From the sequence record NC_048748.1: a stretch of DNA of 64,000 nt; one strand, written 5' to 3'. A model generated the notes under the pieces. The model was not told where the DNA came from, did not search any database, and saw only the letters and a list, made by a program, of their open reading frames with translations. This stretch comes from Escherichia phage vB_EcoS_HdH2. Positions 7,615 through 64,000 of this stretch are shown piece after piece (the first letter of the stretch is position 1; every line of letters starts with the position of its first letter). Both the position numbers and the translations under genes were made by a program.

Positions 7615-7624
7615 GAAACCAATT

Positions 7625-7648: not shown

Positions 7649-7664
7649 TATTTGGGATATGTAA

Positions 7665-7990: not shown

Positions 7991-8000
7991 ATAAATGTAT

Positions 8001-8029: not shown

Positions 8030-8058
8030 ATTTATATAAATTGATAAGAGGATCAATT

Positions 8059-9211: not shown

Positions 9212-9261
9212 TACATAACCCTTTGCTACCCATCTACCATATCGGAATTATAAAGTGGTTA

Positions 9262-9290
9262 TTGACATTTTCGCCGCTTAGGTATATACT
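9262..9290 (+). promoter_or_regulatory. sigma70-type promoter between the ligase halves
   Basis: TTGACA, 17-bp spacer, TATACT. Confidence 0.6.
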
Positions 9291-9354
9291 ATTATCATTC
9301 AGTTGAGGGATAGAAAGTTATGGCGAGGGTAAGCAAAGTTAATTAAAATTGTAG

Positions 9355-9383
9355 TTGCTAAATGCTTAAATACTTGCTATAAT
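9355..9383 (+). promoter_or_regulatory. sigma70-type early promoter
   Basis: TTGCTA, 17-bp spacer, TATAAT, then ATTTATATAAATTGATAAGGAAG. Confidence 0.7.
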
Positions 9384-9413
9384 ATTTATATAAATTGATA
9401 AGGAAGAAATTTG

Positions 9414-13984: not shown

Positions 13985-16552
13985 TTGAAAATCGCAGTAG
14001 TTGATAAAGCTCTAAATAATACTCGTTATGATAAACATTTCCAGCTATACGGCGAGGAAGTTGATGTATTCCATATGTGTAACGAGAAGTTATCTGGTCG
14101 TTTGCTTAAAAAGCACATTACTATTGGAACACCAGAAAACCCATTTGATCCGAATGATTATGATTTTGTTATACTAGTAGGTGCTGAACCTTTCCTGTAC
14201 TTTGCAGGTAAGAAAGGTATTGGTGATTATACCGGTAAACGTGTAGAGTATAATGGATATGCTAACTGGATTGCGAGTATCAGCCCAGCCCAGTTACACT
14301 TTAAACCTGAAATGAAACCAGTTTTTGATGCAACAGTAGAGAATATCCACGATATTATCAATGGTCGTGAGAAGATTGCAAAAGCTGGTGATTACCGTCC
14401 TATTACTGACCCTGATGAGGCAGAAGAATATATCAAGATGGTGTATAATATGGTTATCGGACCTGTCGCATTCGACTCCGAAACCTCAGCACTATACTGT
14501 CGAGATGGTTATCTGCTTGGTGTTTCTATGTCTCACCAAGAGTATCAGGGTGTATATATCGATTCTGATTGTCTCACAGAGGTTGCAGTATATTATCTCC
14601 AGAAAATTCTAGATAGTGAAAACCACACTATTGTTTTTCACAACTTGAAGTTTGATATGCACTTTTATAAGTACCATCTGGGACTTACTTTTGATAAAGC
14701 ACATAAAGAACGCAGGCTCCATGATACCATGTTGCAGCACTATGTTCTAGATGAACGTCGTGGTACTCATGGCTTGAAATCTCTAGCAATGAAGTATACC
14801 GATATGGGTGACTACGACTTCGAACTAGATAAGTTCAAAGATGATTACTGCAAAGCACATAAAATCAAGAAAGAAGATTTCACCTATGATTTAATTCCAT
14901 TTGATATTATGTGGCCGTATGCTGCGAAAGATACAGATGCTACCCTACGTTTACACAACTTCTTTTTACCAAAAATTGAGAAGAATGAAAAACTTTGCAG
15001 TCTGTATTACGATGTTCTAATGCCTGGTTGTGTATTCCTACAGCGTGTCGAAGATCGTGGAGTACCTATATCTATTGATCGTTTGAAAGAAGCTCAGTAT
15101 CAGTTAACTCATAACCTGAATAAAGCCCGTGAGAAACTGTATACTTATCCAGAAGTTAAACAGCTAGAACAAGATCAGAATGAAGCATTTAACCCGAATT
15201 CTGTTAAGCAACTTCGTGTTCTTCTGTTCGATTATGTTGGTTTGACTCCAACTGGTAAGTTAACGGATACTGGTGCAGATTCTACAAACGCAGAAGCTCT
15301 GAATGAACTGGCTACGCAGCATCCGATTGCTAAAACTCTTCTAGAGATTCGTAAACTGACTAAGCTGATCTCTACTTATGTTGAGAAGATTCTACTGAGT
15401 ATTGATGCAGATGGTTGCATTCGTACTGGTTTCCATGAACATATGACTACTTCTGGTCGTCTAAGTTCTTCTGGTAAACTGAACCTGCAACAGTTACCTC
15501 GTGATGAATCTATCATTAAGGGTTGTGTAGTTGCACCACCTGGATACCGTGTAATCGCATGGGACTTAACAACTGCGGAAGTTTATTATGCTGCTGTTCT
15601 ATCTGGTGATAGAAATATGCAACAAGTATTTATCAACATGAGAAATGAACCTGATAAATACCCTGACTTCCACTCTAACATCGCCCACATGGTATTTAAA
15701 TTGCAATGTGAACCCCGTGATGTTAAAAAGTTGTTCCCAGCTCTGCGTCAGGCTGCTAAGGCAATTACCTTCGGTATTCTGTATGGCTCTGGCCCGGCTA
15801 AAGTAGCTCATTCTGTTAATGAAGCTCTTCTGGAACAGGCTGCTAAGACAGGAGAACCGTTTGTTGAATGTACTGTTGCGGATGCGAAGGACTATATCGA
15901 AACTTACTTCGGTCAGTTCCCACAGCTTAAGCGTTGGATTGATAAGTGCCACGATCAAATCAAGAATCATGGGTTTATCTATAGTCACTTTGGTCGTAAA
16001 CGTCGTCTGCATAATATCCATTCCGAAGACCGTGGCGTTCAGGGTGAAGAAATTCGTTCTGGATTTAACGCAATCATTCAGTCTGCTTCTTCTGATAGTC
16101 TCCTTTTAGGTGCTGTAGATGCAGATAATGAAATCATTTCTCTTGGTTTAGAACAAGAGATGAAGATTGTTATGCTGGTTCATGACTCCGTAGTTGCTAT
16201 TGTTCGTGAGGATTTGATCGACCAATACAATGAAATCCTGATTCGTAATATTCAGAAAGACCGTGGTATCAGTATTCCTGGCTGTCCGATTGGTATTGAT
16301 TCAGATTCTGAAGCTGGAGGTTCTCGTGACTATTCTTGTGGTAAGATGAAGAAACAGCACCCATCAATCGCTTGTATTGATGATGATGAATATACTCGTT
16401 ATGTCAAGGGTGTATTACTTGATGCAGATTTCGAGTATAAGAAATTAGCTGCAATGGATAAAGAGCATCCAGACCACAGCAAGTACAAGGATGATAAGTT
16501 TATTGCTGTATGCAAAGATCTGGATAACGTGAAAAGGATTCTCGGTGCTTAA
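13985..16552 (+). CDS. DNA polymerase, family A, with 3'-5' exonuclease domain
   Basis: 855 aa; exo motif VAFDSETSAL; motif B RQAAKAITFGILYG; motif C LVHDS; TTG start 8 nt after GAGGAG. Confidence 0.95.
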   Translation: MKIAVVDKALNNTRYDKHFQLYGEEVDVFHMCNEKLSGRLLKKHITIGTPENPFDPNDYDFVILVGAEPFLYFAGKKGIGDYTGKRVEYNGYANWIASISPAQLHFKPEMKPVFDATVENIHDIINGREKIAKAGDYRPITDPDEAEEYIKMVYNMVIGPVAFDSETSALYCRDGYLLGVSMSHQEYQGVYIDSDCLTEVAVYYLQKILDSENHTIVFHNLKFDMHFYKYHLGLTFDKAHKERRLHDTMLQHYVLDERRGTHGLKSLAMKYTDMGDYDFELDKFKDDYCKAHKIKKEDFTYDLIPFDIMWPYAAKDTDATLRLHNFFLPKIEKNEKLCSLYYDVLMPGCVFLQRVEDRGVPISIDRLKEAQYQLTHNLNKAREKLYTYPEVKQLEQDQNEAFNPNSVKQLRVLLFDYVGLTPTGKLTDTGADSTNAEALNELATQHPIAKTLLEIRKLTKLISTYVEKILLSIDADGCIRTGFHEHMTTSGRLSSSGKLNLQQLPRDESIIKGCVVAPPGYRVIAWDLTTAEVYYAAVLSGDRNMQQVFINMRNEPDKYPDFHSNIAHMVFKLQCEPRDVKKLFPALRQAAKAITFGILYGSGPAKVAHSVNEALLEQAAKTGEPFVECTVADAKDYIETYFGQFPQLKRWIDKCHDQIKNHGFIYSHFGRKRRLHNIHSEDRGVQGEEIRSGFNAIIQSASSDSLLLGAVDADNEIISLGLEQEMKIVMLVHDSVVAIVREDLIDQYNEILIRNIQKDRGISIPGCPIGIDSDSEAGGSRDYSCGKMKKQHPSIACIDDDEYTRYVKGVLLDADFEYKKLAAMDKEHPDHSKYKDDKFIAVCKDLDNVKRILGA

Positions 16553-26818: not shown

Positions 26819-29800
26819 TAACTAGTACCTTTCATTTTGTCTAACTCTGCTTCTATATTTGATAATCTAGTCATCAAATCAAGCTTTTCGTTAATGTTGT
26901 CAATAACAGTGGACATCTCCTGTAATTTAGTCTCAAGAGACTTATTTCTTTCAGATAATACTTTAATAGCAGCTAAAGCATCCATTAATAATGGGTTGGT
27001 ATCTAGAGTTAAAGTAATATCGTCAGTTTCAGGGTTGCCAACAGATTTAACATATTGAGGATCAATCAACTCTAATTGTTGTGCAATAACACCACGTCTA
27101 ATATTCTTTTTCTTATCAAACTTATATGTGAATTTCTTGAACTCCATTTTTTCAATATTTTCAAGAGATTCTTCACCCGATACGTCCTGAATATTATCTT
27201 TTAAATTGATATCAGATACCGCATTTTTAGTATAAGTAAAGTTAAAGACAACGTTATCATAGTCTGATCCCCATCCGTTAATATCCCCTGACATGTGGAA
27301 CTGGTAGGTGCATGCCCAATTAGAGTCCCCGCGCAGTCTAAATACATAGGCAGGCCAAGCAGTAGGGCCACTGGCTATTAATCCAGTAGTAGCCCTCATC
27401 GGGTAACCACCTGTAGATTGAGTTCTGGCACTAATAATAGGCACAAACCCGTGATCATTATCTACTACATCAGAAGCTTGAAAAGGAGCGAAGAAACCAA
27501 ATGAATCCCCATCCCAGGGTTTCTGGTATCCTTGAGTATGCATGCGCTCTGCATTCCAAGCCCCGGAATCCATATACAGATTAGCATATTTAGTAGCAGT
27601 AAAGGAACCGTCTGCAGTACGTCTATAGGCAGCTATCGTAGCTCTTTCAGTAAGAGATTGGCCATAATTACCTTCTGAGTAAAATAGCGCTTCTAAACGA
27701 GGTGTGTCTGGATCCACCGAGTTATCCAACTGGACTTGTGCAGAAAAAACCTCCGATCCTATGTAAGATCCCGCCGAAGGAACCGCGTGGTATTTACGGG
27801 AAATAACACCACCATTCTTAATATTAATAGGCCAACCTTCCAGATTACGTAGCTGAGTAATATCGAAGTTAATACCAGCACTTGCAGCCTCTAGGTTTTT
27901 TCTAGCTTGAGCTGGCTCAGTAGCTCCAGTACCCCCATGCTCAACAGGTAAAGATACCCACTTGTTCTCAGAATGGTCGTATACTCCCCAGTTTTTAGTG
28001 TCTTGGACCATAAACACTATATTTTGATCCTGAGAGGTTATATGTGTTCCTCCTTCTAGCTGCTTTACTCTATCCACTTCTAGGTTAGTTTTGGCGGAAC
28101 TAACTGTAGAAGCTCCTGTCCCTCCTTTAGCTAGACTTAAGACACCTTGAGTATCACCATTTAGATCTGGCTTGTTAACAGTACCATAAAGAATATTAGT
28201 ATGAACAATAGGGTTTTCACTATCTAAACCAGCATCATTGATTGCAGCTACAAATACTGCGGCACTACCATACCCAGCACAGATAAATGAATTAGTATCT
28301 GCTACCCTAGAGTAGAAACCTGCAGAATACGAGGGCAAGCCCTCAACTCCAGTATCATTGCGATAATATCCAGAACCAAAAGCTCTCATAGCTTTAAAGA
28401 AGGATACTAGATCTGGCTCATTTAACGTAATACCAGCACCACCTAAGCCAAAAGCACCGCGAAGTAGAACTTCCCCATCAGTACCATTCCAAGCATTCTT
28501 AGTAACAACGTTACCTAGTGCTAGGTTACCATTCTCGTCTGGTATAATAGTTCCATTAACCATAGCCACGTAAGGGAGCTTAATAGCTCCAGTATCGTCA
28601 GCAGGACTAATCCCATTCACAGTGGTAATATAAGGAATTTGTTCTTTGATAGCACCAGCATCTTCTTCACCCTTAGTTGGTGCACGGAATGCCTGTCCCT
28701 GCATCATATCTGGTAGACGGAAAGTAGTAGTACCATTACCAGTGGAGAAATAGAGAGTTGCACCTGCTTGCCATTGTTCTTCGGTAACAGAAGGGATTAA
28801 GCCAGCCTCAATAGCTTCCCAAGTATCTGGGTAGTCTACACGAAGAACTTCACGACCATCAGCAGGAAGAACACCAGGGTAGCCAACACCTGAATCTTTA
28901 TCATAAGGGAACCAAGTAACTTCACCCAGCCATAAAGAGGGGTTACCACCAGGAAGAGTAATCTGTACGTTACCTGCGTCATCTGCACGAACGTTGTTAA
29001 TAGAAACTAGCTTTTGCTCTGTCTCTACTAACTCTAATACTGGAGTCTCAGCAGTTCCAGCTACTTTGTACCAACCGTACTTTGAATCAGTTTGATTCCA
29101 TACTAAAATCTTTTCACCTAATACACGACTAGATACATCTGCATCAGCTTCAGCTTTAGTTTTATATACTTTGATAAATCCAGAAATATCTTCTTTATCA
29201 AGTTTAGTGTCTACTATTTGAGCAGCACGATCAGCTTCTGCTTTAGCGCGATTAGCCTCAGTAGTTGCATTTCCTGCCTGATTAGTGGCTTCACCCTCAG
29301 ATGCAGCAGCATTAATCTCAGACGTTTTAGCATTTAATTCCGATTGCTTAGCAGCAGCAGCATGTTCTCCAGCAGTTGTAGCAGAATTAGCAGCTTTTAT
29401 TTCGGAAGAGGCGGTTCTTTTCTCAGCAGCTTCTGCACCAGTTTGGGCTGTCTGTGCAGCTATTTTAGCCTGTTCAGCTAATAAACGACTTTGTTCAGCA
29501 TTCTGCGCTGCCAATTCGGCAGAGTCTCTAAATCCCTTTGATTCTTGCGCAGAAGCTGCAGAATTATCTGCACTGCTTTGGGCTAATCCCGCCTGTTTTT
29601 CTGACTCAGTAGCAGAGGCAGCAGATTGAGTTGCTGAAGCTTCGGAAGCACCAGCATGAATACCTGCCTGAATCTCTGAATCTTTAGCTTTATTTTCAGA
29701 GTCTTTAGCTGCTATTTCAGAACCTTTAGCAGCAGCAGCGGATCCTGCAGCGGCCTCTACAGCAGCAGTTAATTCACCAGCAGTAATAGAACTAATAGAA

Positions 29801-53793: not shown

Positions 53794-53898
53794 TTGGGAA
53801 ATCTCGAAATTTCATAAGATTACACATGGAGGTGTGTCCAGTGGCCCCCCAGATGAGAATGAGTCTCATTACCGCCCGTTACTATTACCATGCTAACT

Positions 53899-53935
53899 GT
53901 TTCACCCTGCAACCATTTTAATTGCAAGGTGAAAC
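53899..53935. other. 13-bp-stem hairpin between convergent genes
   Basis: gtttcaccctgcaa / ttgcaaggtgaaac (one mismatch); no flanking U-run. Confidence 0.4.
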
Positions 53936-53952
53936 AATATCAACTTTAATTA

Positions 53953-54687
53953 TTACGCAACTTTTAATTTCTCGATATATTGTTGCGGGCTGCAACTATA
54001 TTCTGCGCGTTCTTCTTCTGTCATACTTTCCCAACATAATTGCAAGCGATCGGCTAGGAACTGATAATCATTATCATCCTCAAGAGATTCATCAATAAAG
54101 GTTTCACCTATCAATGTGACGCCGATTGATAGAATATCGTTAATAGCTTGCGCGTCCAGCGTTTTAAATCCATATGATGCCGCCGCTGATAGCACGCCTT
54201 TATGATCGTCGATCATCGTGAAATCAGCGTTCGGGTATAGCTGTTTGAATAGCTCAAAATAATGGCTTTTATAAATAGCGTCCTTACTGTGGTATATTTC
54301 GCTAACTTTATCAGCCGTAAAATATTTGTGAAGTGTATCGCGGGAAAATACACGGATATTACTATCCCCACGCCCTCGCAATCCTTGCTTGCGCAAATAA
54401 TAATAGTCCGACTTGCTCATCAGTCGAGCGGTACAAATAATGTTTAACGTGTTGGCGTCATTCATGCACTGGCGCATATATGTAACAAGCGGCAATAAAG
54501 TATCCTGCATTATTAAATCATGTTTACATGCTTCATTTTTATACTTATTTAAATCTAAATTCCCATCGCTATCAAAGCAAGGCGCTACGCGATGAAATGA
54601 ATTGATGATTGTTCCGTCCAGATCCCAAATCATGACGCGGGAAATATGCGGGAAATTACGGGTAATATTCGTTTTAACTTGATTCAT
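53953..54687 (-). CDS. dmp: HAD-family phosphatase, candidate 5'-deoxyribonucleotidase (dmp-like)
   Basis: 244 aa; HAD motif I MIWDLDGTIINS; located in pre-early-type block with A1-like gene. Confidence 0.5.
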   Translation of the reverse strand: MNQVKTNITRNFPHISRVMIWDLDGTIINSFHRVAPCFDSDGNLDLNKYKNEACKHDLIMQDTLLPLVTYMRQCMNDANTLNIICTARLMSKSDYYYLRKQGLRGRGDSNIRVFSRDTLHKYFTADKVSEIYHSKDAIYKSHYFELFKQLYPNADFTMIDDHKGVLSAAASYGFKTLDAQAINDILSIGVTLIGETFIDESLEDDNDYQFLADRLQLCWESMTEEERAEYSCSPQQYIEKLKVA

Positions 54688-54761
54688 TTTGTTACGTTCT
54701 CCGTTTAAGGGATTAAATTAAATTAATCCAGCCCACTGGATGGGCCGGACTATTCCAGCTA

Positions 54762-55154
54762 TTAAAGACCATAAGCCAACGCATCAGCGATAAAACTAAT
54801 ATCCTCACCTGATACATCGGAACGGATGCCCGCGCATGTAAATACCTTCGCGCTCATTAGCTGATCATCAAGGCAAGCGGGGCAAGGGGCAACTACTGCG
54901 AAAGCTAACCCCGATTTCACCGCGTCGATGATAGTCGTTTCTTGTTTCATCGTGTCAATATAAACGCCTTTCGCCTTGATGCGGCTGGATAGTTTGCCCG
55001 TGGTATAGGCAAAGGTAGTAACCTGCAAAGCGTCATTAAAATCTAATAGGTCATCAACAACGTGCCCCGCCTCAACGTGATACCGCTCACCATTAGAATA
55101 AACTAGGACGATGGAAGAATGAGCGCGATCGAATGGAATATTTTGCTTTTTCAT
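54762..55154 (-). CDS. hypothetical pre-early protein (A2 position)
   Basis: 130 aa, downstream of A1-like gene. Confidence 0.4.
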   Translation of the reverse strand: MKKQNIPFDRAHSSIVLVYSNGERYHVEAGHVVDDLLDFNDALQVTTFAYTTGKLSSRIKAKGVYIDTMKQETTIIDAVKSGLAFAVVAPCPACLDDQLMSAKVFTCAGIRSDVSGEDISFIADALAYGL

Positions 55155-55175
55155 ATTTATAAAACTCCAATTAGT

Positions 55176-55685
55176 TTAATAAGGGATATTAAATTCTTTA
55201 CACTTTGATTTAACCCATTCTAAAAGAATAGATAAATCATAATTGCCTTTTGAAACATATTTATTTGTTATAGGGTTTTTAATTTTTGCCCTGTAATATT
55301 CTCCCGCTATGGGATCAACTTTATCAAGATAAATATATTTCGGTAGTTTATTACGCCTTTTATAATCACTCTTATTTGTCATATTAACCGCATGAGTAAC
55401 TAGGCGTAAATTATTTATATCGTTGTTAACGGGGTAAGAAATTATTTTATGATCTATATCTAAATCAGGGTTAATTTCTTTATTAAATAAAACCCAAATT
55501 AAACGATGAGCTTTATATAATTCACCATTAATCATTACATCATAATAGCCTGTCTGATTTAATGTTCCCGCTACACTTCCAGCTTTCACACCGGGCTTAC
55601 TTATTTTCCATCGTAAAAATGATGGGCTAGATTCATCATAATAAACATTCTCGTTAACTTCATTAAAATCTATTTCTTTTGCCAT
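55176..55685 (-). CDS. free-standing HNH homing endonuclease
   Basis: YKAHRLIWVLF...DIDHKIISYPVNNDINNLRLVTHAVN; paralogue of 59474..59821. Confidence 0.75.
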   Translation of the reverse strand: MAKEIDFNEVNENVYYDESSPSFLRWKISKPGVKAGSVAGTLNQTGYYDVMINGELYKAHRLIWVLFNKEINPDLDIDHKIISYPVNNDINNLRLVTHAVNMTNKSDYKRRNKLPKYIYLDKVDPIAGEYYRAKIKNPITNKYVSKGNYDLSILLEWVKSKCKEFNIPY

Positions 55686-55755
55686 TTATATTCCTCCAAT
55701 TAATATTATCTCATTAATTGGAGGATTTAGGCAAATAAGGTTTTAATTTATCGGC

Positions 55756-57429
55756 TTACTGTACAAAGAATTTACCGTTCTTAAAGTCGATCAAAGTACG
55801 CTGGCCGTTCGCATAGGTAATAACATGCGTTTGCGTCCAGCTTGACGCGCCAACGTTGTAACCCATATCCAGACTACCAGACACGCCGGCAGTGTATACG
55901 CCGCCGTAAATGCTGGCGGTGTGAGTGTGCCCCGTGTTTAATTTGCCCAATTTCTTAAATTGCTTCGGATTGCCACGGCTCCCGTTAATGCCATTGTGAC
56001 CGTGTACGCCGCATTCAATGCCTGCAATTTTAAATGATTGGTCAGTGGTCAGGAAAATAGCGTTAAATTCACAACCTGCAACCTTGCGCAGCGCATAATC
56101 TAGCACGTTGAAAGTATCGTCTTTTTCTGCAATAGCTCCGTAAATCGCAGCATTAAGGCGGTGATATAGTTCCGCGTTGGCTGGATCGTCTTTAATGTTA
56201 GCATTACGATCATCAAGCCAACGGGATAACGCCAGATCATGGTTAGATTCAACAATGATCGTTTGAGCAAAATCGCGCTCCATTGATTCCAGTACGCGCC
56301 CGGTATCGATCAAATCATCAATAACCTTATCACGTCCGGCGGCGTATTGTTTTGCTAGGAATACACCAGACGCACGATTATGATGATTGCGTGATGTAAA
56401 ATCATGCACGTCATGCACAAACTGATATTTTGGCTTCAGAATATCAACAAGCCCGTAGGTGTCACCATGCCCCCACGACGCAGCGGCGCACTCCTCATCT
56501 AATTTTTCAGCGTGAATATCGCCATATTGTAAACCTAAAACGTGCCCCGTTGTTTCATAGCATCCGGCGGGAGTGGCGCAAATATTCAAATCGTAAAACA
56601 TGCCGCTTTCGTCCATCGTTTCAAGCTGGCGAACAAAAAATTCCCCGTCCTCGTCGAACTCAACGACAAGCGCACCAAAGTTATGTAGCGCCTCGGCCTT
56701 TTGCCCTGCTTTCTGCTGGATGTAGTTTTTAAGCGTTGCCGTGCCCGTTGAATACATGCGGCGCACTACTTCACCTTTTAAAGCTGGCACGCTTTCGGCG
56801 GTGATTTTAGCCGCCCCGATTGCCAGACCTTCCAGATTAAGCGCCGTTGCAGTTTCAGCGAATCCAGAAAGCGGATAATCTGCGGTAGGTAACACGTTAA
56901 TCTCCGCCATGAAAGCAAAACGGCGATTATTTAAAAACACGTTTTTGCTGCAAATATATTTATCAAATGCAGAATCATATTTGATTCCGTCCGCGCCCTC
57001 ACCATTTTGGAATCCGTTTTTATTATAAATATACTTAGAAACAAGCAAATCAGCGCCGATAAACTGGGCATATTGTTCAAGCGAGGCTAAAAAGTTTTTA
57101 TGCGGGAAAGTATTATTCTGAATCGAGGTAATAATAAAGCGTTTGCCTTGTTTTACTTCCCAGCTTTCCACCGTGCTAGAAATAACTCCGGCGGCTTCAG
57201 GGCGGTCATCGTTTTTAATAGCTTTTACAGTTTTTGCCGCTTTTGGTTTCGCTGGTTTATTTGCTTCCAGCCAATCACAAATAGCGGTGGAATGCTTTGG
57301 AGTATCGTAAACCGCTTTCGAAATATCGTCGCATACTTCCAGTTTAGTAGCGCGCAGACGTTTACCATAGAAATTGAAGTCAGCGGCAAGGTTCAGGATA
57401 ACGGTTTGTTTTTCTGCGGAAATAATCAT
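55756..57429 (-). CDS. A1: A1-like pre-early protein, calcineurin-type metallophosphoesterase
   Basis: 557 aa; motifs GLQYGDIHAEK, VESNHD, GVHGHNG, GHTH. Confidence 0.7.
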   Translation of the reverse strand: MIISAEKQTVILNLAADFNFYGKRLRATKLEVCDDISKAVYDTPKHSTAICDWLEANKPAKPKAAKTVKAIKNDDRPEAAGVISSTVESWEVKQGKRFIITSIQNNTFPHKNFLASLEQYAQFIGADLLVSKYIYNKNGFQNGEGADGIKYDSAFDKYICSKNVFLNNRRFAFMAEINVLPTADYPLSGFAETATALNLEGLAIGAAKITAESVPALKGEVVRRMYSTGTATLKNYIQQKAGQKAEALHNFGALVVEFDEDGEFFVRQLETMDESGMFYDLNICATPAGCYETTGHVLGLQYGDIHAEKLDEECAAASWGHGDTYGLVDILKPKYQFVHDVHDFTSRNHHNRASGVFLAKQYAAGRDKVIDDLIDTGRVLESMERDFAQTIIVESNHDLALSRWLDDRNANIKDDPANAELYHRLNAAIYGAIAEKDDTFNVLDYALRKVAGCEFNAIFLTTDQSFKIAGIECGVHGHNGINGSRGNPKQFKKLGKLNTGHTHTASIYGGVYTAGVSGSLDMGYNVGASSWTQTHVITYANGQRTLIDFKNGKFFVQ

Positions 57430-57526
57430 AGTAATAAAGCTCCATTAAAGGGATTAAAAACGTTTGTTATTGGCAAATATTGCCAGATATAACGCCGCTT
57501 ATTTACAGCGTTATAACTTGCAATAT

Positions 57527-57772
57527 TTAACTAATCGGCATAAGGCTAGAACTAACACCACAAGCAACGGCGGCAATAAAGCAAAGTAAGCCCAACCGCT
57601 TTGCTAATTTAGATTTACGTTTAAAATAATATGAATCTAAATCATTTTGAAAATAAGCGAACAATAATGAGGCCGCTACAATAAATAAGCCTAAAATTAG
57701 CGATTCAGTGGGGTAAAAGATCATTTTAATAACTCCAGTCAAAGGGAAATTATAGTGGGGAATATTCCCCAC
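57527..57772 (-). CDS. small membrane protein
   Basis: 81 aa; two hydrophobic helices. Confidence 0.5.
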   Translation of the reverse strand: MGNIPHYNFPLTGVIKMIFYPTESLILGLFIVAASLLFAYFQNDLDSYYFKRKSKLAKRLGLLCFIAAVACGVSSSLMPIS

Positions 57773-57781
57773 TAATTAAAT

Positions 57782-58189
57782 TTATTCGCCTGCGGCTTGT
57801 TTTACTTCATCGGCAACGCCTAACAGCTGCGCCACGGCGTCCAACGTTTCTAATTTTGCGCTTTCCAGTGATGCCAGATCGTCAACGTCTTTGATAATGC
57901 CGGAATCAATGGCATGTTTAGCGATAACACGCACATAATGCGCTTTACGAATGGAACTGCCGCCGCCAACTTTACGCGGCTTATCGCTTTTCTGATACGC
58001 TTTCGCGCTGGTCAATTTTGAGCGAACGGACACGGGGGAGGCCGCACCTACTGCTTTCGCAATCTCTTTCAAGCCGTCGCTATTTGCGAAATCTAAACCG
58101 TTTTCATTGATTAGCTGCTGATACATGGAAACAGCCTGCTGGGTGTTTTCTTCATTCCAAGAAAATTTTGCGGTTTTAACGTTAGTCAT
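57782..58189 (-). CDS. hypothetical pre-early protein
   Basis: 135 aa; AGGAG SD. Confidence 0.55.
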   Translation of the reverse strand: MTNVKTAKFSWNEENTQQAVSMYQQLINENGLDFANSDGLKEIAKAVGAASPVSVRSKLTSAKAYQKSDKPRKVGGGSSIRKAHYVRVIAKHAIDSGIIKDVDDLASLESAKLETLDAVAQLLGVADEVKQAAGE

Positions 58190-58290
58190 GATTATAACTC
58201 CTATTGAATTAATTTAAGGGATAAGATTAACATAATGTTAATCGTTATATCCCCCGAACTACTGGGGGATATAAAAGTAACACTATAAAC

Positions 58291-58542
58291 TTATGCTACA
58301 GCTTCCCATTTTTCGTTACGCTGGATAACCTTTACAGCGTCGCCGGATTTAACCCGAACGCTATAAATAGTTTTTCCGTTGTTACTCCGTTCCGTTTCAG
58401 CGTATACCGCATCAATTACATCAAACGGCATAAGCGCCGCGCCTTTGATGCGTTCGGTTTTTCCGGTTGCCTCATCCGTTTTAGTAACGAAAGGAATAAA
58501 AACGGATTGACCAATTTTAGGCGCATTAGTAACGTTTTGCAT
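58291..58542 (-). CDS. hypothetical small protein
   Basis: 83-aa ORF. Confidence 0.45.
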   Translation of the reverse strand: MQNVTNAPKIGQSVFIPFVTKTDEATGKTERIKGAALMPFDVIDAVYAETERSNNGKTIYSVRVKSGDAVKVIQRNEKWEAVA

Positions 58543-58774
58543 AGTATAAACTCCAGTTTATTTAGTGGATTGTTCCGCATTACCTGCTGTAAAAGTAGTG
58601 GCAGGTAATAAGTAACAATCCGCTCGCCATTATAATCAATTTAAGGAACTCCACTCAGGCCGCTATATCCCAGTTAGGGGGCGGGGCACATTATGGCAAG
58701 TACCGGCCGTCAAATTTTATCAAGTTATCGCTCTCATCGAACTGGGTACATCTTAAAGCCTATCGGCTAGGGTG

Positions 58775-58978
58775 TCAAACAATTTTTTGCAGTTTTTTAT
58801 GATTCTCTTTCAAGTCAATCATAATATTGCGCCAGATCATTTCCAACCCTTGCTGGCGGCCTTTCTTGTACTGCGTGAATCTATATTTTACGGATTGCTG
58901 AGCTATTGTCAACAATTTTTTAGTAGTACCATCCAATTTTTTGGCTGGTTTACCAGTTATTAAAAGCGTTTGTTTCAT
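58775..58978 (-). CDS. hypothetical small basic protein, enclosed by 24-bp inverted repeats
   Basis: 67 aa, Lys-rich; AAGGA SD. Confidence 0.4.
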   Translation of the reverse strand: MKQTLLITGKPAKKLDGTTKKLLTIAQQSVKYRFTQYKKGRQQGLEMIWRNIMIDLKENHKKLQKIV

Positions 58979-59473
58979 ATCTGCGATTCCTTATATAATT
59001 GATAAGTTTACCGCCGATAGACTTTAAGATGTACCCAATTTTTAAAGAGCGCGGCGGTAAACTTTCCCGCCGTGTAGTTCGTCATTGCCGCCCTACGAGA
59101 TAAATAATAGGGGATACCCAAAAATGGCGCAACCTTATTTTTGTAAAGAAATGTAAAGAAGGCAACACGCCCGGCGCTCACATAAGTTTAAAGGAAACGG
59201 GCGCGCGGATACCACAAAACACAGCAGATAGGCAAGTAATTTTTTCATTTATATTTGCCTTGCCCTACTTGACAAAACTTAAAAAGCTCGTGGTAGCGAT
59301 AAACGAGGGTAGGCAATGCAATGGCATACCTGAAAATTTTACCGCTTTCTAGGGCGTTTTAGGCGGCCTAAAATTGATTTAACAAATATTTAACAACTGC
59401 AAAATTGAAAAATAGTTGGAAAAGGTATTGACTTTTAAAAATCAAGACTAAATGAGTTATTTTATAAAATTAA

Positions 59474-59821
59474 TTAATTGACTTTCTTTTTATATTGTGA
59501 AGGCCGGTTTTTATTGTTTTCGGCCTGCGTTACTTGTCTAAGGTTATCCCCTTTATTATTTAGCTTGTTACGATCAATATGATCAATCATTAGATTACTA
59601 TCTATTTCACCATGTAATAGTAACCATACGACACGATGTACTAAATAACATTCTTTATTAAGTCGAACGATATAATAACCTTGTGAATAGTAAGTACCTG
59701 CAACTGTATCTTTCCTAACTCTTCCCTTATTGACTTTCCAGCGTAGTGACGTTTTCGATGTTTCATCATAATAAAAGTAATGATTAAACAAGTCATAATC
59801 CATTTCTTTATATTTACCCAT
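59474..59821 (-). CDS. free-standing HNH homing endonuclease
   Basis: YLVHRVVWLLLHG...DHIDRNKLNNKGDNLRQVTQAEN; N-terminus parallels 55176..55685. Confidence 0.75.
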   Translation of the reverse strand: MGKYKEMDYDLFNHYFYYDETSKTSLRWKVNKGRVRKDTVAGTYYSQGYYIVRLNKECYLVHRVVWLLLHGEIDSNLMIDHIDRNKLNNKGDNLRQVTQAENNKNRPSQYKKKVN

Positions 59822-59876
59822 TGTTATAGTTTCCTTATGTTATTAATTTAATCTCTATTATATTATATCAAAACCA

Positions 59877-59959
59877 TTAGCAGACTACCTAATGAGTTTT
59901 TCAAGTTTAATTAGCAGACTACTAATCCCGGAAAATCTCATTAGCCAACTAACTATTTC
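59877..59959 (+). repeat. three direct repeats of TTAGC(A/C)(G/A)ACTA(C/A)
   Basis: Copies at 59877, 59911, 59941 in the intergenic region upstream of the HNH gene start. Confidence 0.6.
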
Positions 59960-60085
59960 TTGAGTTATAATATAAATATAAATTAATGAGAAATAATCAC
60001 TATAAAAATAATCACTACGATAATAATAACAACAAGAAACTATCGGCCTAAGTGAGAACCACTATCATTTAAGTTATTCACAAAG

Positions 60086-60181
60086 TTATCCACAGCACAA
60101 AATGATTTGACACGATAGGCGGCGATATACGGGCTTATCCACAGACTTATCCACAGGTTATCCTACTGTATAAATATACAG
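60086..60181 (+). promoter_or_regulatory. left inverted-repeat module: three DnaA boxes plus a LexA-like SOS box
   Basis: TTATCCACA at 60086, 60135, 60147; CTGTATAAATATACAG at 60166..60181. Confidence 0.7.
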
Positions 60182-60448
60182 GGTAGAAAGGTAGTGTTAA
60201 CGACTGCAATCAATTTTATGCCGCCTAAAACGCTTTCTAACGAGCTAAATGCGGTGGGGTAATATTAAAGTAAAGCCGCAACGCGTCGCCCTGGTGGCTT
60301 CGCCGTGTTTTGCTCTTTACTATGCCGCTGCGCGGTTAGCATAAAACTAGGTGTTAGGCAAGGAAAATAAAAAGGTAAAATAATATTTGCCCCTAGAAAG
60401 AAAATACCTTTATCATTCACTCACCGATTAACGAGGGAGGCCGAACAA

Positions 60449-61426
60449 ATGAGGCTTTATAAACCAGATAACGCAACCGTCTTAAAAGGTGCATTGCGCA
60501 ACCTGCTGGATGGTAGCAGAACAACCAGCATTAAACACTTTGTTAACAAGGCCGAAGATATTCACCAAAATTTTTTTGATGATTTCGACGCCTATGATAT
60601 GAGTAGCTTTTTGCAACTATATAAGCAAGGGGCAACGATTATCTTATATAATCGAGATAATCACCTGCTTACTAGCAGGGGGCCGGACACTGATTTCATA
60701 ATCGTAAAAGGTAACACAGTAAAAGCCTATGATACTGGGGCGGGCTTAGAAGTTTTTTCAATAGAAAACTATGAAGCCAACCCCAATGATCTTTATGACG
60801 TTGAAAACTTTCTTGATTCATTTTGGCGTTATTTATCCGTTGGCTGGAATCGGTCAATTGGTGACGGGTATCGTCTGGCGGCTGTAATGGCTTTTGATGA
60901 TAACGGTAATTTTTTGTTACCGTCGGAAGTATACCCATACGTATATGATGGGGATATAGAAAGCGCGGGCTTTTCTTTCTGGAAGGAGGAGGATCAGCCT
61001 ATTGACAACACGGAAAAACATGCTGTAAATTCTAACACTCAAACCATTGAAAACAAAGGAAAAAATGCCATGACCAAGATCGCTAATATCGTTGCCGCTA
61101 ATAAGTCCGCCGTTGTAAATGCTGCAAAACTGGAAGCGGGTAAAATTGCACTGACTCAAATTACGAAAGTAGCGGCTAAAAAAGCACCGTTTATTATCAA
61201 GGGTTATATTGATACGCCGATTGGTCGGGTAGTGATTGCCAACCTGCTGAGCGTAGCGGTTGACCAGTACTCCCCTAGCAACCAAAAGGCGAAAGCGGTA
61301 GCGGATGCAGCTATGGAAGCGGCTATGTTAGAAATGGTACAAAGTTTTAACATCGCTGAAATGATTGACGAAATGGTGAAAGGTATTGATATTTCTACTT
61401 TTACCGTTAACACCGAAAACGAGTAA
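60449..61426 (+). CDS. hypothetical protein
   Basis: 325 aa; GAGG SD; terminator downstream. Confidence 0.65.
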   Translation: MRLYKPDNATVLKGALRNLLDGSRTTSIKHFVNKAEDIHQNFFDDFDAYDMSSFLQLYKQGATIILYNRDNHLLTSRGPDTDFIIVKGNTVKAYDTGAGLEVFSIENYEANPNDLYDVENFLDSFWRYLSVGWNRSIGDGYRLAAVMAFDDNGNFLLPSEVYPYVYDGDIESAGFSFWKEEDQPIDNTEKHAVNSNTQTIENKGKNAMTKIANIVAANKSAVVNAAKLEAGKIALTQITKVAAKKAPFIIKGYIDTPIGRVVIANLLSVAVDQYSPSNQKAKAVADAAMEAAMLEMVQSFNIAEMIDEMVKGIDISTFTVNTENE

Positions 61427-61451
61427 TAGTTAACCTAGTGTAAAGTTTTGT

Positions 61452-61480
61452 AAAGGTCGCCATAATCGGCGACCTTTTTT
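61452..61480 (+). terminator. intrinsic terminator
   Basis: aaaggtcgcc-ataat-cggcgaccttt followed by tttttt. Confidence 0.7.
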
Positions 61481-61544
61481 GTTATAATGCCTTTACACCG
61501 TTCGAGGACGGTTGAAAATTTTCCCAAAAATTTGGAGGCTTAAA

Positions 61545-61775
61545 ATGGTTGCTTATTCTTCTTCTGACTCTCTTTTCACTGGAAAAGGTTGGGTGTCCAA
61601 TCGCTGGATCATTCAAGAAATGGTGCAAGAATACGGCATTGCTAAAACTTACACTACCATTCAGGCGCTTTATGATAATGATCAGATTGATCAGCAGACA
61701 GCTGGCTTTTTGCTGGATACCCTGAAGGCGGAACATTGTACTAAAAAACAAGCCGCCAAAATCGTTTTAATGTAA
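61545..61775 (+). CDS. hypothetical small protein
   Basis: 76 aa from ATG 61545 after TGGAGG. Confidence 0.5.
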   Translation: MVAYSSSDSLFTGKGWVSNRWIIQEMVQEYGIAKTYTTIQALYDNDQIDQQTAGFLLDTLKAEHCTKKQAAKIVLM

Positions 61776-61821
61776 TTAATAACGGGGCGTTATTTTCGCC
61801 CCACTAACTAGGAGAATGAAA

Positions 61822-61968
61822 ATGGTTATTTTTCGAGCTATTCTGGCGGGTATCTTGGGCGCTATTTTATCTTTGTTTGCAATAGCTTTCGACGTTCACG
61901 CGGTTATTATTGGCGCGGGTATCGCTGTTTTTTCTTATTTGCTGGGCTGCATGAATAAAGGAGAATAA
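61822..61968 (+). CDS. small membrane protein (48 aa)
   Basis: AGGAG upstream; MVIFRAILAGILGAILSLFAIAFDVHAVIIGAGIAVFSYLLGCMNKGE. Confidence 0.5.
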   Translation: MVIFRAILAGILGAILSLFAIAFDVHAVIIGAGIAVFSYLLGCMNKGE

Positions 61969-61970
61969 AA

Positions 61971-62183
61971 ATGATCCGCAACGTTTCTCTTGCTCGTTCA
62001 AAAGGTTTTAAGCTGGTGGACGTTAACACGTTCGAACGGGAAGATTGTAAAATCGAATATATAGCACGGAATAAAAACGCCTTCCGTGTTACAGAAAAGA
62101 AATTCGATAAACGGGGTAACGTGATAGCTGAAACGGTTAAATATTTTGCCACCTTTTACGCTGCGTTTCGTGGGGTACTATGA
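61971..62183 (+). CDS. hypothetical small protein
   Basis: 70 aa, AAAGGAG upstream. Confidence 0.5.
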   Translation: MIRNVSLARSKGFKLVDVNTFEREDCKIEYIARNKNAFRVTEKKFDKRGNVIAETVKYFATFYAAFRGVL

Positions 62184-62305
62184 AAAGCGTTATTGTTATT
62201 CTCCTTGCAATGGTTGGCGGTTTTACCGCCACCTTATTTAAGAATGATCCCCTTTTACTGGGGATTTTTATGCTTTTATCTGGTTATCTGATCGGGAGGT
62301 TATAA
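62180..62305 (+). CDS. small membrane protein (41 aa)
   Basis: ATGA overlap; MKSVIVILLAMVGGFTATLFKNDPLLLGIFMLLSGYLIGRL. Confidence 0.45.
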   Translation: MKSVIVILLAMVGGFTATLFKNDPLLLGIFMLLSGYLIGRL

Positions 62306-62306
62306 A

Positions 62307-62651
62307 ATGGTAATTTATGAGGGCAACCGCTTTGTTACTAATTGCCGCCCGGCATTATTAGCAAACTACTTAAACCAGCTTTCACCTGAATATAAGGGCG
62401 TTGTTAATATTTACGAGGGAAAAGCGCATTATAAGATTAATGCGGTCGTTGCCCGTGAACTAGCATTTCAATTTTTGACCTTCGCATCGTGTGATATTCA
62501 GGTCATGGGTGAAGCATTAATAGCAGAAAATGAAGACGATTTTATTAATATTTTCCGCAAGGTATGCACCGAGCGCCTGATCATGAAAGGTGTATATATT
62601 CAATCAACGGCGGAAAGTATTGAAACGGCTTTTCGAAAGGTGGCACAATGA
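62307..62651 (+). CDS. hypothetical protein
   Basis: 114 aa; GGGAGG SD. Confidence 0.55.
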   Translation: MVIYEGNRFVTNCRPALLANYLNQLSPEYKGVVNIYEGKAHYKINAVVARELAFQFLTFASCDIQVMGEALIAENEDDFINIFRKVCTERLIMKGVYIQSTAESIETAFRKVAQ

Positions 62652-62753
62652 GATTATATATTTTCGCGGGTAATGTTGAGGCTGCAAATGATTCCGCTGG
62701 TGGCGATAATGTTCGCCACTATTGGCAAAAATATATTTACTAGGAGCTATATA

Positions 62754-62948
62754 ATGGGCAAGAATATTATTGTGACCAAAATCAGTACAATGGTTGACGT
62801 TTTTTACGTGCCCGATACGCCAGAAAACCGGCAAGCGGTCGAGCGGGGCGATTATGGTAGCGTTATTTATGATCACGATGGCTATTATCGGCATTTGGTC
62901 GATTCCTATGGGGAGGAGGAGAAGATCACGCATCGACTACCAGACTAA
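62754..62948 (+). CDS. hypothetical small protein (start uncertain)
   Basis: ATG 62754 after AGGAG; ORF track extends the frame to 62673. Confidence 0.45.
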   Translation: MGKNIIVTKISTMVDVFYVPDTPENRQAVERGDYGSVIYDHDGYYRHLVDSYGEEEKITHRLPD

Positions 62949-63025
62949 TAATCACGGGGCGCAACTATCAGGGAGTGCCCCAATTCCCAAATGAGAATCA
63001 TTCTCATTTGACCGCGCCCGTGATG

Positions 63026-63093
63026 GTTAGCCCGCTAACGATTAGGGTGTTACGTGTTGCCTTGTGTGATCGTTAGCGGGCTAACTAATTTTT
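63026..63093 (+). terminator. large hairpin plus T-run after the small-gene operon
   Basis: gttagcccgctaacg ... cgttagcgggctaac (15-bp arms, ~30-nt loop) followed by taattttt. Confidence 0.45.
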
Positions 63094-63205
63094 AAGCCTC
63101 CTCCAATTTTGCCCTTGTTTTAGTATCCCCACCAAAATTAAACGCGTTAGAATGCGATTCAGGACGTTTTAGCGGTATATTAGAATTATTCACTACATAG
63201 GAATA

Positions 63206-63313
63206 CTGTATAAATATACAGTAGGATAAGCTGTGGATAAGTCTGTTAATAACGCCTCAAAATGGCTAGGATTCTGTCAAGTCAAATCGTGCTGTTAATA
63301 AGTCTGTGGATAA
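63206..63313 (-). promoter_or_regulatory. right inverted-repeat module: LexA-like SOS box plus two DnaA boxes
   Basis: TACTGTATAAATATACAGTA (19/20 to LexA consensus); TGTGGATAA at 63232 and 63305 (TTATCCACA on minus strand). Confidence 0.7.
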
Positions 63314-63511
63314 CTTAAATAACAGTGTTTCTCACTTCCATTCTTAAACGAGAATGATTCTCATTTGCATTCCACTGTCTAACCGATAATCATTTCCTTT
63401 CTTAAATGAGAATCATTTCACTTTTTGAATAGTTCTCATTTCACTTCTTAAATGAGAATCATTATCATTCGCATTCCACTTCTTAAATGATAATGATTCT
63501 CATTCAAAGTC

Positions 63512-63536
63512 GCAGGGCAATTGCCCTGCGCTTTTG
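63512..63536 (+). terminator. palindromic hairpin plus T-run
   Basis: gcagggcaattgccctgc followed by gcttttg. Confidence 0.5.
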
Positions 63537-63755
63537 TGCAAATCCGACATGTGCTCCAAGGGTTACGTGCTGGCGTGTATGTGCAAATCCGACAATTTTT
63601 GGTAGTGTGCAAATCCGACCCGAAAAATTTATAAATTCGTGAGAGTGACGAATCTGTCTCCTAAAAACTCCAGCAATCACGAACTGCGTTCGAATCCTGT
63701 GGAATTAGCTAGAGTATGTGCAAATCCGACATGTGTTGAGCTGTGCGAATCCGAT
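63536..63755 (+). repeat. five direct repeats of GTGC(A/G)AATCCGA(C/T)
   Basis: Copies at 63536, 63581, 63607, 63718, 63743 with irregular spacing. Confidence 0.7.
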
Positions 63756-63779
63756 GAAATTTTTGTGACTTCGATGAGA

Positions 63780-63940
63780 GGGTGTGTGATTGTATAGGTT
63801 TGAGGAGAAGATGAGAGAGCGAGAAAAATTTGGGAGGCTAGAAGGATGTGGGTGCAGGATTGGTGCGGAGCACCTGATTTGCGGGGATTTTGGGGAAGAG
63901 TTGAGAAGATTTGGGAAGATTTGAGATAGGTGCAGAAAAA
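63780..63940 (+). repeat. purine-rich strand-asymmetric tract with GATTTGGGAAG-type repeats
   Basis: About 160 bp almost devoid of C on the plus strand; repeated gagaagat and tttggg(g)aag units; no ORF. Confidence 0.6.
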
Positions 63941-64000
63941 GCGAAATTTTATTAGCTAAATGGGGCAAAATAGCTTGACAAGTGAAAATTCTTGTGGCTC

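Follow-up and report, generated by a model that had tools for sequence, protein, structure and literature searches.

A predicted LexA operator joined to DnaA boxes in the inverted repeats of T5-like first-step-transfer DNA

What might sites for two host proteins, LexA and DnaA, be doing on the DNA with which a strictly virulent phage begins to enter its host? The question is raised by a locus of about 3 kb in Escherichia phage vB_EcoS_HdH2 (sequence record NC_048748.1), in which a block of small genes is bracketed by two inverted-repeat arms, each carrying DnaA boxes and a palindrome similar to the LexA operators (SOS boxes) of Escherichia coli. Positions given below are those of the window, i.e., the whole stretch of 64,000 nucleotides (nt) that was analyzed; it is the final part of a 120,120-bp T5-like phage genome, and its end is the right genome end.

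RESULTS

Location and identity of the arms

Positions 53835 to 64000 of the window are 100% identical to positions 1 to 10,166 of the same genome (IMG/VR) and, therefore, represent the right copy of a 10,166-bp direct terminal repeat, which in T5 constitutes the first-step-transfer (FST) DNA and is the first to enter the cell. The gene layout of this repeat agrees with the annotated T5 and BF23 records, and an earlier note on this stretch was right to regard the DNA as being of the pre-early type. The arms form an inverted repeat of 147 nt that is 74% complementary, with a core of 132 nt showing 76.5% identity (blastn E value of 3e-22). The right module is thus an imperfect reverse complement of the left one, as that note had stated; the features that it placed within 60086 to 60181 and 63206 to 63313 are all there, but the arms extend beyond these limits.

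53835 to 64000, no strand: right terminal-repeat copy
60050 to 60196, plus strand: proximal (left) arm, equivalent to T5 IRC-spacer-IRD (Repeat Region 2), from the inverted repeat, alignment, and T5 annotation
60074 to 60094, plus strand: DnaA-box pair 1, TTATTCACA, AAG, TTATCCACA, from motif search
60135 to 60155, plus strand: DnaA-box pair 2, TTATCCACA, GAC, TTATCCACA, from motif search, at 61-bp spacing from pair 1
60164 to 60183, no strand: proximal LexA-type operator TACTGTATAAATATACAGGG, 22.1 bits, kept in 30/30 unique left arms
63191 to 63337, minus strand: distal (right) arm, equivalent to T5 IRD'-spacer-IRC', from the inverted repeat, alignment, and T5 annotation
63204 to 63223, no strand: distal LexA-type operator TACTGTATAAATATACAGTA, the T5 "palindrome D," 25.7 bits, identical to AY587007 positions 9330 to 9349
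63232 to 63313, minus strand: four DnaA-type boxes, TTATCCACA at 63232 to 63240 and 63305 to 63313 and TTATTAACA at 63244 to 63252 and 63293 to 63301, from motif search, spacing of 61

Within the terminal repeat, the arms occupy positions 6216 to 6362 and 9357 to 9503, compared to 6022 to 6152 and 9332 to 9462 in T5. They sit downstream of genes A1 and A2 and bracket pre-early genes that are transcribed oppositely to these two. The distal arm lies just before the noncoding stop region, within the misc_feature "injection stop signal" (9140 to 10144) of the T5 record AY692264 and, by the T5 annotation, ∼0.3 kb before the nick/shear point. Alignment of 30 unique arms from either side, T5 among them, shows the left arm to be 75 to 94% identical to its counterparts in 30 T5-like phages and the right arm to be 88 to 98% identical; against T5 itself (loci L017/L018), the values are 75% and 92%, respectively. 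By homology, position, and box layout alike, the arms are the IRC-spacer-IRD and IRD'-spacer-IRC' repeats of the T5 type.

DnaA boxes

The perfect box TTATCCACA occurs five times in the 64-kb window, at 60086, 60135, and 60147 on the plus strand and at 63232 and 63305 on the minus strand, always inside an arm and exactly where the earlier note had located it. Only 0.64 copies would be expected by chance, and none of 100 shuffled sequences reached five; matches to TTWTNCACA thus exceed chance, with all five perfect boxes confined to 2 × 147 nt. Three more boxes, in addition to those listed in the note (TTATTCACA at 60074 and TTATTAACA at 63244 to 63252 and 63293 to 63301), bring the count to four per arm and eight in total. 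They are arranged in pairs with 3 bp between the members, and the pairs are 61 bp apart, start to start, in both arms. A weak third repeat, TTATCCTAC (60158 to 60166), follows pair 2 and overlaps the flank of the LexA box. Substitutions in the boxes among the phages remain within the consensus (TTATCCACA, TTTTACACA, and TTTTGCACA, for example), and the arm boxes can be regarded as predicted sites for host DnaA. The BF23 paper (PMC10644984) repeats Davison's account of this region (see below) and describes experimental work on the repeats and the DnaA boxes as lacking.

The spacer between the DnaA-box pairs contains an invariant TTGACA or TTGACG (60107 to 60112 and 63267 to 63272) in every phage examined, with no usable −10 element at 16 to 18 bp.

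LexA-type boxes

The palindrome CTGTATAAATATACAG is found in the window exactly twice, at 60166 and 63206, once per arm and on the side that faces the genes, so that each arm consists of four DnaA boxes phasing into a single LexA-type operator. The right-hand 20-mer, TACTGTATAAATATACAGTA, matches the LexA consensus in 19 of 20 positions, the figure given in the earlier note. The scoring that the note had suggested as a check was done with a LexA matrix built from a non-curated set of 24 E. coli operators (range, 13.2 to 23.9 bits; median, 19.6 bits). The proximal box scores 22.1 bits and the distal one 25.7 bits, at or above the upper range of these operators, whose maximum is 23.9 bits. Both sites are, then, CTGT-N8-ACAG palindromes with scores in the range of proven operators, as judged by this matrix. 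First-order Markov sequences matched in composition yield 0.01 sites per 64 kb at 22 bits or more.

The box is the best-kept part of the arm alignments. All distal boxes in the 30 right arms score at least 23.7 bits, and in the left arms the proximal box shows a change of ACAG to ACAA in 4 of 30. Among 71 boxes collected from T5-like phages, all of which score at least 16.5 bits, the CTG and CAG triplets are essentially invariant, and variation is concentrated at the positions that carry little information in LexA operators (Spearman rho = −0.71, a value inflated by the kinship of the phages). The center of the palindrome (60171 to 60172 and 63211 to 63212) toggles between AA and TT as a unit and independently in each arm, with all four combinations represented among close relatives (L001 to L041). 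The flanks are arm specific (CAGGG versus CAGTA) and stay unchanged when the center toggles; this speaks against gene conversion between the arms and in favor of the center being inverted locally, e.g., by template switching. Centers of the AT or TA type are absent from Tequintavirus-like arms, yet they are common in the same 16-mer in non-T5 contigs.

Taken together, the strength of the box, its conservation across the family, its pattern of variation, and the occurrences of its 16-mer elsewhere (see below) make binding of LexA to the palindrome D boxes very likely, as far as sequence can tell.

Two more LexA-like sites, at 15135 to 15154 (17.8 bits) and 27369 to 27388 (18.3 bits), lie inside long open reading frames (ORFs) of 855 and 1027 amino acids (aa), respectively; sites of at least 17 bits are expected 0.07 times per 64 kb.

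Conservation in distant phages

The region upstream of A1/A2 was compared with that of seven distant phages, namely, Klebsiella phage Spivey (Sugarlandvirus), Pantoea phage AAS21, Pectobacterium phage My1 (Myunavirus), Proteus phage 1 (Novosibvirus), and Vibrio phages JSF12, D36, and Cody. All seven contain a box of 18.9 to 25.7 bits, usually two, within 9 to 22 bp of a DnaA-type box, either a perfect TTATCCACA or a variant with one or two mismatches, and a box reaching 18.9 bits or more next to DnaA boxes is found in each of the ten lineages sampled. In the same phages, proteins have diverged widely: A1 is 32 to 41% identical to that of the window in the Proteus and Vibrio phages (32 to 34% in the latter), and A2, which is present in every box-carrying phage and retains conserved motifs, is 35 to 41% identical in the distant phages. 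When the whole terminal repeat was compared by 9-mers with the four most distant phages, the longest shared nonrepetitive blocks were the LexA boxes, of 19 and 23 nt, together with the DnaA boxes. Motifs less conserved than their flanks, the outcome that the earlier note had named as speaking against its proposal, were therefore not observed; the boxes are conserved far beyond the flanks, up to the Vibrio phages.

A 61-nt core of the LexA/DnaA module is matched in 540 phage records. The 16-mer of the box is also found, with TA or AA flanks, in at least ∼100 unrelated viral contigs, mostly of 10 to 75 kb, among the matches listed. In that same set of matches, there is no DnaA box within 150 bp of the 16-mer outside the T5-like phages, whereas all 25 occurrences in T5-like contigs have DnaA boxes nearby. 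The fused DnaA-LexA module, as defined by these sequence patterns, is very likely a signature of the T5-like phage family.

In Vibrio phages JSF12 and Cody (L046, positions 7682 to 7710, and L048, positions 508 to 535), the first DnaA box overlaps by one base a second, degenerate LexA-like palindrome, TTATCCACAACTGTATATTTATACAT (16.5 bits). The 61-nt core was also seen in a 261-kb record named "Klebsiella phage vB_Kpn_AM_K6" (H122) and in short "Listeria phage" records (H129), which are probably chimeric or contaminated database entries. In Rhizobium and Dinoroseobacter phages that encode A1, this gene is found among structural or replication genes, with no A2, terminal-repeat, or cassette context, so that these phages offer no comparison of the box with the alphaproteobacterial LexA motif.

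Promoters and terminators near the boxes

An operator of the chromosomal kind would be expected to overlap or abut a promoter, and in neither arm is this seen as a conserved feature. The proximal box contains the −10 element of a candidate leftward promoter, which is present in 17 of the 30 left arms and absent from T5 and the distant phages; no promoter-like site with at least 10 of 12 matches overlaps the distal box. The promoters annotated in T5 (AY587007) do not overlap the boxes, and the three pre-early promoters that have been characterized experimentally are at other positions, one of them upstream of gene 011 (Annor 2026). Further, the AA/TT flip swaps the strand that has a usable −10 element (TATATT versus TATAAA) and is indifferent to a symmetric dimer, which argues against a promoter role. 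The boxes are, thus, probably not classical operators, judging from the sequences compared. The SOS-coupled control suggested in the earlier note may still apply, but no conserved promoter was found under the boxes.

60173 to 60200, minus strand: candidate leftward promoter, TTAACA-16-TATATT, 10/12 match, with the −10 element inside the proximal LexA box
60387 to 60416, plus strand: TTGCCC-18-TATCAT, the probable promoter for the rightward pre-early operon; T5 has its putative promoter T5P4 here (T5 and BF23 annotations)
61452 to 61477, plus strand: internal rho-independent terminator that separates the first gene from the block of small ones and is annotated at this site in T5 and BF23 too; at the matching position, the T5 record has a terminator followed by a promoter
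63026 to 63085, plus strand: operon terminator, a 17-bp perfect hairpin with a T-run at the position of T5 palindrome C (inverted repeat; T5 annotation)

What had been described before

The architecture of the locus, which the earlier note took to be undescribed, is annotated in the T5 record AY587007, where the arms appear as inverted repeats C and D (6022 to 6152) and D' and C' (9332 to 9462); positions 9330 to 9349 of that record, TACTGTATAAATATACAGTA, are labeled "palindrome D," with no function given. Davison (2020; bioRxiv 10.1101/866236), who credits these repeat names to Wang et al., analyzed 25 T5-like phages and described the eight DnaA boxes, their pairing, and the highly variable length and content of the block between the arms. 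In the same work, membrane-bound DnaA on the arm boxes was proposed to stop injection and cleavage of a palindrome to restart it, palindrome D being among the candidate cleavage sites. The inverted repeats, the DnaA boxes, and the cassette are, therefore, not new. The LexA box appears to be: the text of Davison (2020) contains no mention of LexA or SOS, and a search for literature linking a LexA or SOS box with T5-like phages returned nothing relevant, the older papers of Davison (2015), Wang et al. (2005), and Heusterspreute et al. (1987) being outside its coverage. On this count, the claim of the earlier note seems to stand, and the identity of palindrome D as a LexA-type operator, along with its conservation throughout the family, appears to be new.

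Genes between the arms and inversion of the block

The genes bracketed by the arms are the known dispensable pre-early genes T5 011 to 017.

60449 to 61426, plus strand: 325-aa DUF7566 protein, homolog of T5 011 (PF24450 at 3e-106; phrog_4263)
61545 to 62948, plus strand: seven small pre-early ORFs, all with matches to PHROG families and kept in T5-like loci
Small ORFs 1 to 4, plus strand: 76 aa, 61545 to 61775; 48 aa, 61822 to 61968; 70 aa, 61971 to 62183; 41 aa, 62180 to 62305
Small ORFs 5 to 7, plus strand: 114 aa, 62307 to 62651; 31 aa, 62648 to 62743; 64 aa, 62754 to 62948

The ORFs listed in the earlier note as a seven-gene operon are correct, but eight are conserved, the additional one being the 31-aa ORF (phrog_22819), and the internal terminator divides the block. 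In the T5 record AY692264, the 011 product is described as T5p010, a "37 kD pre-early protein, unessential, del1 region"; it is toxic if expressed alone, as are several other gene products of the block (Annor 2026). The 70-aa ORF matches phrog_4227, annotated as "endonuclease nicking abasic sites generated by host Ung." Two of the ORF products were given in the note as single-helix membrane peptides; by reading only, the peptides of 48 and 41 aa each look instead like two hydrophobic stretches split by a short polar turn (DVH and KNDP, respectively), in the manner of helical hairpins.

Relative to A1, the gene for the DUF7566 protein runs antiparallel in AAS21 and all Tequintavirus-like loci but parallel in Spivey, loci L039 to L041, and My1. 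In My1, the homologs of the first and the last gene are reversed in both order and strand, which makes this a true inversion of the segment. The block has thus been inverted at least once in evolution, in Sugarlandvirus and Myunavirus, with the boxes holding their position. Davison (2020) described the gene block of Type 2 and Type 3 phages as "missing and replaced"; in contrast, the homolog of 011 is retained, although inverted. In loci L039 to L041, the inner flank of the distal arm of the window maps beside the proximal arm in the opposite orientation, whereas the outer, DnaA-containing part remains distal. This mapping places the inversion breakpoint in the segment comprising the LexA box and the first DnaA box, the longest stretch identical between the arms. 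The fact that the block was inverted between them suggests that the arms work independently of the direction of gene transcription.

Orientation is constant in all Tequintavirus-like loci fetched (L001 to L038; L035 lacks the region). Pfam and PHROG scans of the cassette ORFs and their neighbors recognized DUF7566, the Ung-dependent nicking endonuclease family, and an HNH endonuclease. Neither the eight ORFs nor the neighbors include a detectable recombinase, invertase, or transposase. Compared with the invertible segments of the Hin/Gin/Cin kind, the locus has no recombinase gene, and the two orientations are seen only between genera; compared with a transposon or insertion sequence, it has no transposase and is always at the same place of the terminal repeat. 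The mobile or invertible cassette envisaged in the earlier note is, therefore, an apt description of the evolutionary history of the block but not of its present state: the inversion looks like a rare event of homologous recombination, rather than an active switch.

Neighboring genes and other features

55756 to 57429, minus strand: A1 gene, 557 aa, required both for second-step transfer and for degrading host DNA (ORF; A1/DNA transfer protein in homologous records)
57782 to 58189, minus strand: A2 gene, 135 aa, dimeric DNA-binding protein needed for second-step transfer (ORF; homologous records)
59474 to 59821, minus strand: HNH homing-endonuclease gene directly left of the proximal arm (PF13392 at 4e-16; phrog_99)
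60208 to 60249, plus strand: motif of the T5 "inverted repeat B" type, CCTAAAACGC..TTCTAACG (inverted repeat; T5 annotation)
63338 to 63530, no strand: AAATGAGAATCATTCTCATTT repeats and palindromes (T5 DRC, palindromes E to I), then the hairpin CGCAGGGCAATTGCCCTGCG (T5 palindrome J; T5 annotation)
63535 to 63755, plus strand: five copies of TGTGCAAATCCGAY (T5 direct repeat D; repeat family D3)

A2 was considered as a possible LexA-like protein, and searches of Pfam and PDB sequences gave no match for it. An HNH-type insertion is also found in T5, Shivani, and FFH1 (Davison 2020). The motif at 60208 to 60249 has a partner at 59338 to 59379 and a related copy in the flank of the distal arm at 63140 to 63180, and CTAAAACG is present in 7 copies in the window versus 2.2 expected. 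A motif of the form GCGTTAGAATGCG...CGTTTTAG lies 20 to 55 nt inward of each LexA box and also in the T5 inverted repeat B (59338 to 59379, 60208 to 60249, and 63140 to 63180), with recognizable versions beside the boxes in the Proteus and Vibrio phages; it may be recognized by a protein of the phage, A2 for instance. In T5, the 7.9% nick and shear point lies just past palindrome J (AY587007). The repeat TGTGCAAATCCGAY is also found beyond the distal arm in Klebsiella, Pantoea, Pectobacterium, and two Vibrio phages, which have one to seven copies of it (L043, 5216 to 5708; L044, 4433 to 4928; L046, 7379; L048, 151 to 277; L171, 12358 to 13286), which makes it a third deeply conserved noncoding motif near the terminal-repeat boundary.

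Six copies of the E. coli Chi sequence, GCTGGTGG, are present in the window versus 0.8 expected (9167, 10489, 19844, 41459 on the minus strand, 62012, and 62696), with five of the six on the plus strand. The two sites in the cassette, less than 2 kb from the right genome end, are kept in T5 and BF23. In the cassette of Klebsiella phage Spivey, the orientation of the Chi sites relative to the genome is unchanged despite the inverted genes.

DISCUSSION

A tentative reading of the arms and its difficulties

The observations outlined above suggest, with a confidence somewhat short of an even chance, that the arms are composite, promoter-less landing pads on which host LexA and DnaA assemble as the phage DNA enters. 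The left terminal repeat enters the cell first, as established for T5; LexA dimers and DnaA already present in the cytoplasm would occupy the arms as these emerge. The resulting complexes could act in cis as architectural elements or roadblocks on the FST DNA: the distal one would contribute to holding or insulating the DNA during the pause and keep rightward transcription from entering DNA that has yet to be injected, with the proximal arm serving as an accessory copy. Since LexA occupancy falls when the SOS response is on, such an element would make the pause step sensitive to the DNA damage status of the host. The ∼30-bp core that is identical in the two arms, consisting of a DnaA box and the LexA box, has also been the substrate for the homologous recombination that inverted the gene block. 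Occupancy of the arms by LexA and DnaA, and any influence that this would have on pausing, insulation, or the sensing of SOS, are inferred. The stronger version, in which LexA together with DnaA is a working part of the T5 injection stop signal, so that the length and fidelity of the pause and the pre-early program depend on the SOS and replication status of the host, has a rather low probability. Davison (2020) independently argues that the DnaA boxes of the arms are part of that signal.

Several points weigh against this proposal. The T5-like phage ESCO40 was isolated on E. coli DH5alpha. That strain is recA1, and LexA cleavage is, accordingly, not required for infection; nor was anything found to show that the lexA status of the host matters for plaque formation. 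The link to the pause is weak, because cytoplasmic DNA-binding proteins are expected to favor DNA entry, not to block it. With A2 still 35 to 41% identical in the distant phages, this protein could recognize palindrome D itself, its specificity having been retained. Binding by either host protein was predicted from sequence, with the LexA matrix derived from a non-curated set of operators. Finally, T5 with a deletion from hegG to 017 is viable and forms small plaques (Annor 2026); if the deletion is contiguous, the proximal arm is dispensable in the laboratory. One further idea, the titration of host factors put forward in the earlier note, probably plays little part, given the early degradation of the host chromosome by T5 (Annor 2026).

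Alternative explanations

The boxes could instead be classical SOS operators, at which LexA represses an overlapping unmapped promoter, such as TTAACA-16-TATATT (60200 to 60173) or an inward promoter with its −35 element in the adjacent DnaA-like repeat, so that production of a pre-early transcript or small RNA would be confined to SOS-induced cells or would follow LexA cleavage triggered by host DNA breakdown. A LexA box over a −10 element is the usual operator layout, the 10/12 site in more than half of the left arms has precisely this arrangement, and a terminator-like hairpin at 60292 to 60306 could end a rightward transcript of ∼130 nt from the proximal box. However, T5 and all the distant phages lack that site while keeping the box, nothing comparable lies over the universally conserved distal box, and the AA/TT flip reverses the strand with the good −10 element. 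Promoter-like matches are, moreover, common in this AT-rich DNA (26 found versus 16 expected), scanning the entire terminal repeat against Rfam with a permissive threshold gave nothing near a gathering score, and the characterized pre-early promoters are elsewhere (Annor 2026). Repression of a promoter of this kind thus appears unlikely. Another suggestion is that the palindrome is the target of the phage A2 dimer or of an A1-A2 complex, which would bind or cut it, the likeness to LexA operators being either a coincidence or a mimicry that excludes LexA or competes with it. A2, a dimeric double-stranded-DNA-binding protein needed for second-step transfer, would be a suitable candidate, and palindrome D has been listed among the candidate cleavage sites (Davison 2020); A2 also accompanies the box in every phage and has no Pfam or PDB homolog. 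Against this, the match covers all 20 positions of the LexA consensus, flanks included; the variation follows the LexA information profile; and the same 16-mer with LexA-type flanks is found, among the matches listed, in at least ∼100 unrelated viral contigs that have no DnaA boxes nearby. The LexA motif is understood to be constant across Gammaproteobacteria, and constancy of the boxes while A1 and A2 diverge to 32 to 41% identity is what would be expected for a host factor. A phage-encoded ligand is, on balance, rather improbable.

There is far less to recommend the view that the repeats mark the termini of a cassette that is mobile or actively inverts, with the host-factor boxes being incidental. 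It accommodates a gene block lying between 147-nt inverted repeats, its inversion in Spivey, L039 to L041, and My1, and its variable length and content (Davison 2020). It does not explain why there is no enzyme for the reaction in the eight ORFs or neighbors, why a single orientation prevails in the Tequintavirus-like loci, or why the arms always occupy the same place in the terminal repeat, with no sign of transposition. Exchange between the arms must be rare, since they are 76% identical within the genome compared to 88 to 98% between orthologous right arms, and the conserved part is the boxes, not the arm ends. This view is, accordingly, highly improbable. The likelihood that the LexA-like palindromes are functionless chance features of AT-rich repeat DNA is vanishingly small: the region is indeed full of repeats and palindromes, but only 0.01 sites per 64 kb would be expected at such scores, and the box is kept in ten sampled lineages, Vibrio phages included, with its 61-nt core in 540 phage records.

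Comparison with known systems

In terms of homologous sequence, position, the eight boxes, and the 61-bp spacing, the element is the same as T5 Repeat Regions 2 and 3 (C, D, D', and C', with palindrome D). These regions were reportedly described by Heusterspreute et al. in 1987, as cited in Davison's preprint. In the published accounts covered here, palindrome D figures either as a palindrome with no assignment or as a possible cleavage site of the restriction type; the present reading is that of a predicted LexA-type operator. With the SOS boxes of E. coli (recA, sulA, umuDC, dinD, and colicin genes), it shares CTGT-N8-ACAG, the TA-rich center, and the TA flanks, and the phage boxes score at or above the strongest chromosomal operators of the set used for the matrix. 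Unlike those operators, which overlap or abut the promoter that they repress, the phage boxes have no conserved promoter, reside on a virulent phage, are fused to DnaA arrays, and are paired in inverted orientation 3 kb apart, at four copies per genome.

Co-option of LexA by mobile elements is also known from CTXphi and from tum of coliphage 186. In GIL01, which acts through gp7-LexA (PMC4551915), the phage likewise uses host LexA and its operator sequence and has no repressor of its own. In cases of the GIL01 type, however, LexA gates a lysogeny-lysis promoter of a temperate element, whereas here the phage is strictly virulent, and the sites are on the first-entering DNA with no evident promoter. 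Clusters of DnaA boxes outside oriC include datA and the DARS-type sites, and DnaA-box complexes are reported to act as transcription roadblocks at asnC. Clusters of the datA/DARS type similarly combine high-affinity TTATCCACA boxes with weaker phased neighbors and are not expected to function as origins; T5 origins map to the middle of the genome (Davison 2020). The phage clusters differ from them in being paired with a LexA-type operator and in being carried on injected phage DNA. The invertible phage segments, such as Mu G, P1 C, and others of the Hin/Gin/Cin family, offer a third parallel. Like Mu G and P1 C, the locus has a gene block flanked by inverted repeats and both orientations among relatives; unlike them, it has no invertase gene, its arms are long (147 nt) and diverged (74%), and its orientation is constant within genera.

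Implications

The halt of T5 at 8% of its genome and the later restart are poorly understood, and the same has recently been said of the second transfer step (PNAS 2026). Recognition of palindrome D as a LexA operator would add to the question of the T5 injection stop a second named host protein, one that can be purified and has well-developed genetics, with lexA(Def), lexA(Ind-), and recA strains, and so provide a directly testable handle; the phage engineering tools for such tests exist (Annor et al. 2026). Should LexA prove irrelevant, the finding would reduce to a better annotation of a known element. If the proposed role of the arms is correct, they would represent an unusual case of a virulent phage keeping an SOS box without a promoter, and LexA would be a host factor for a cis-acting injection stop, with a strictly virulent phage family reading LexA occupancy without the use of a promoter.

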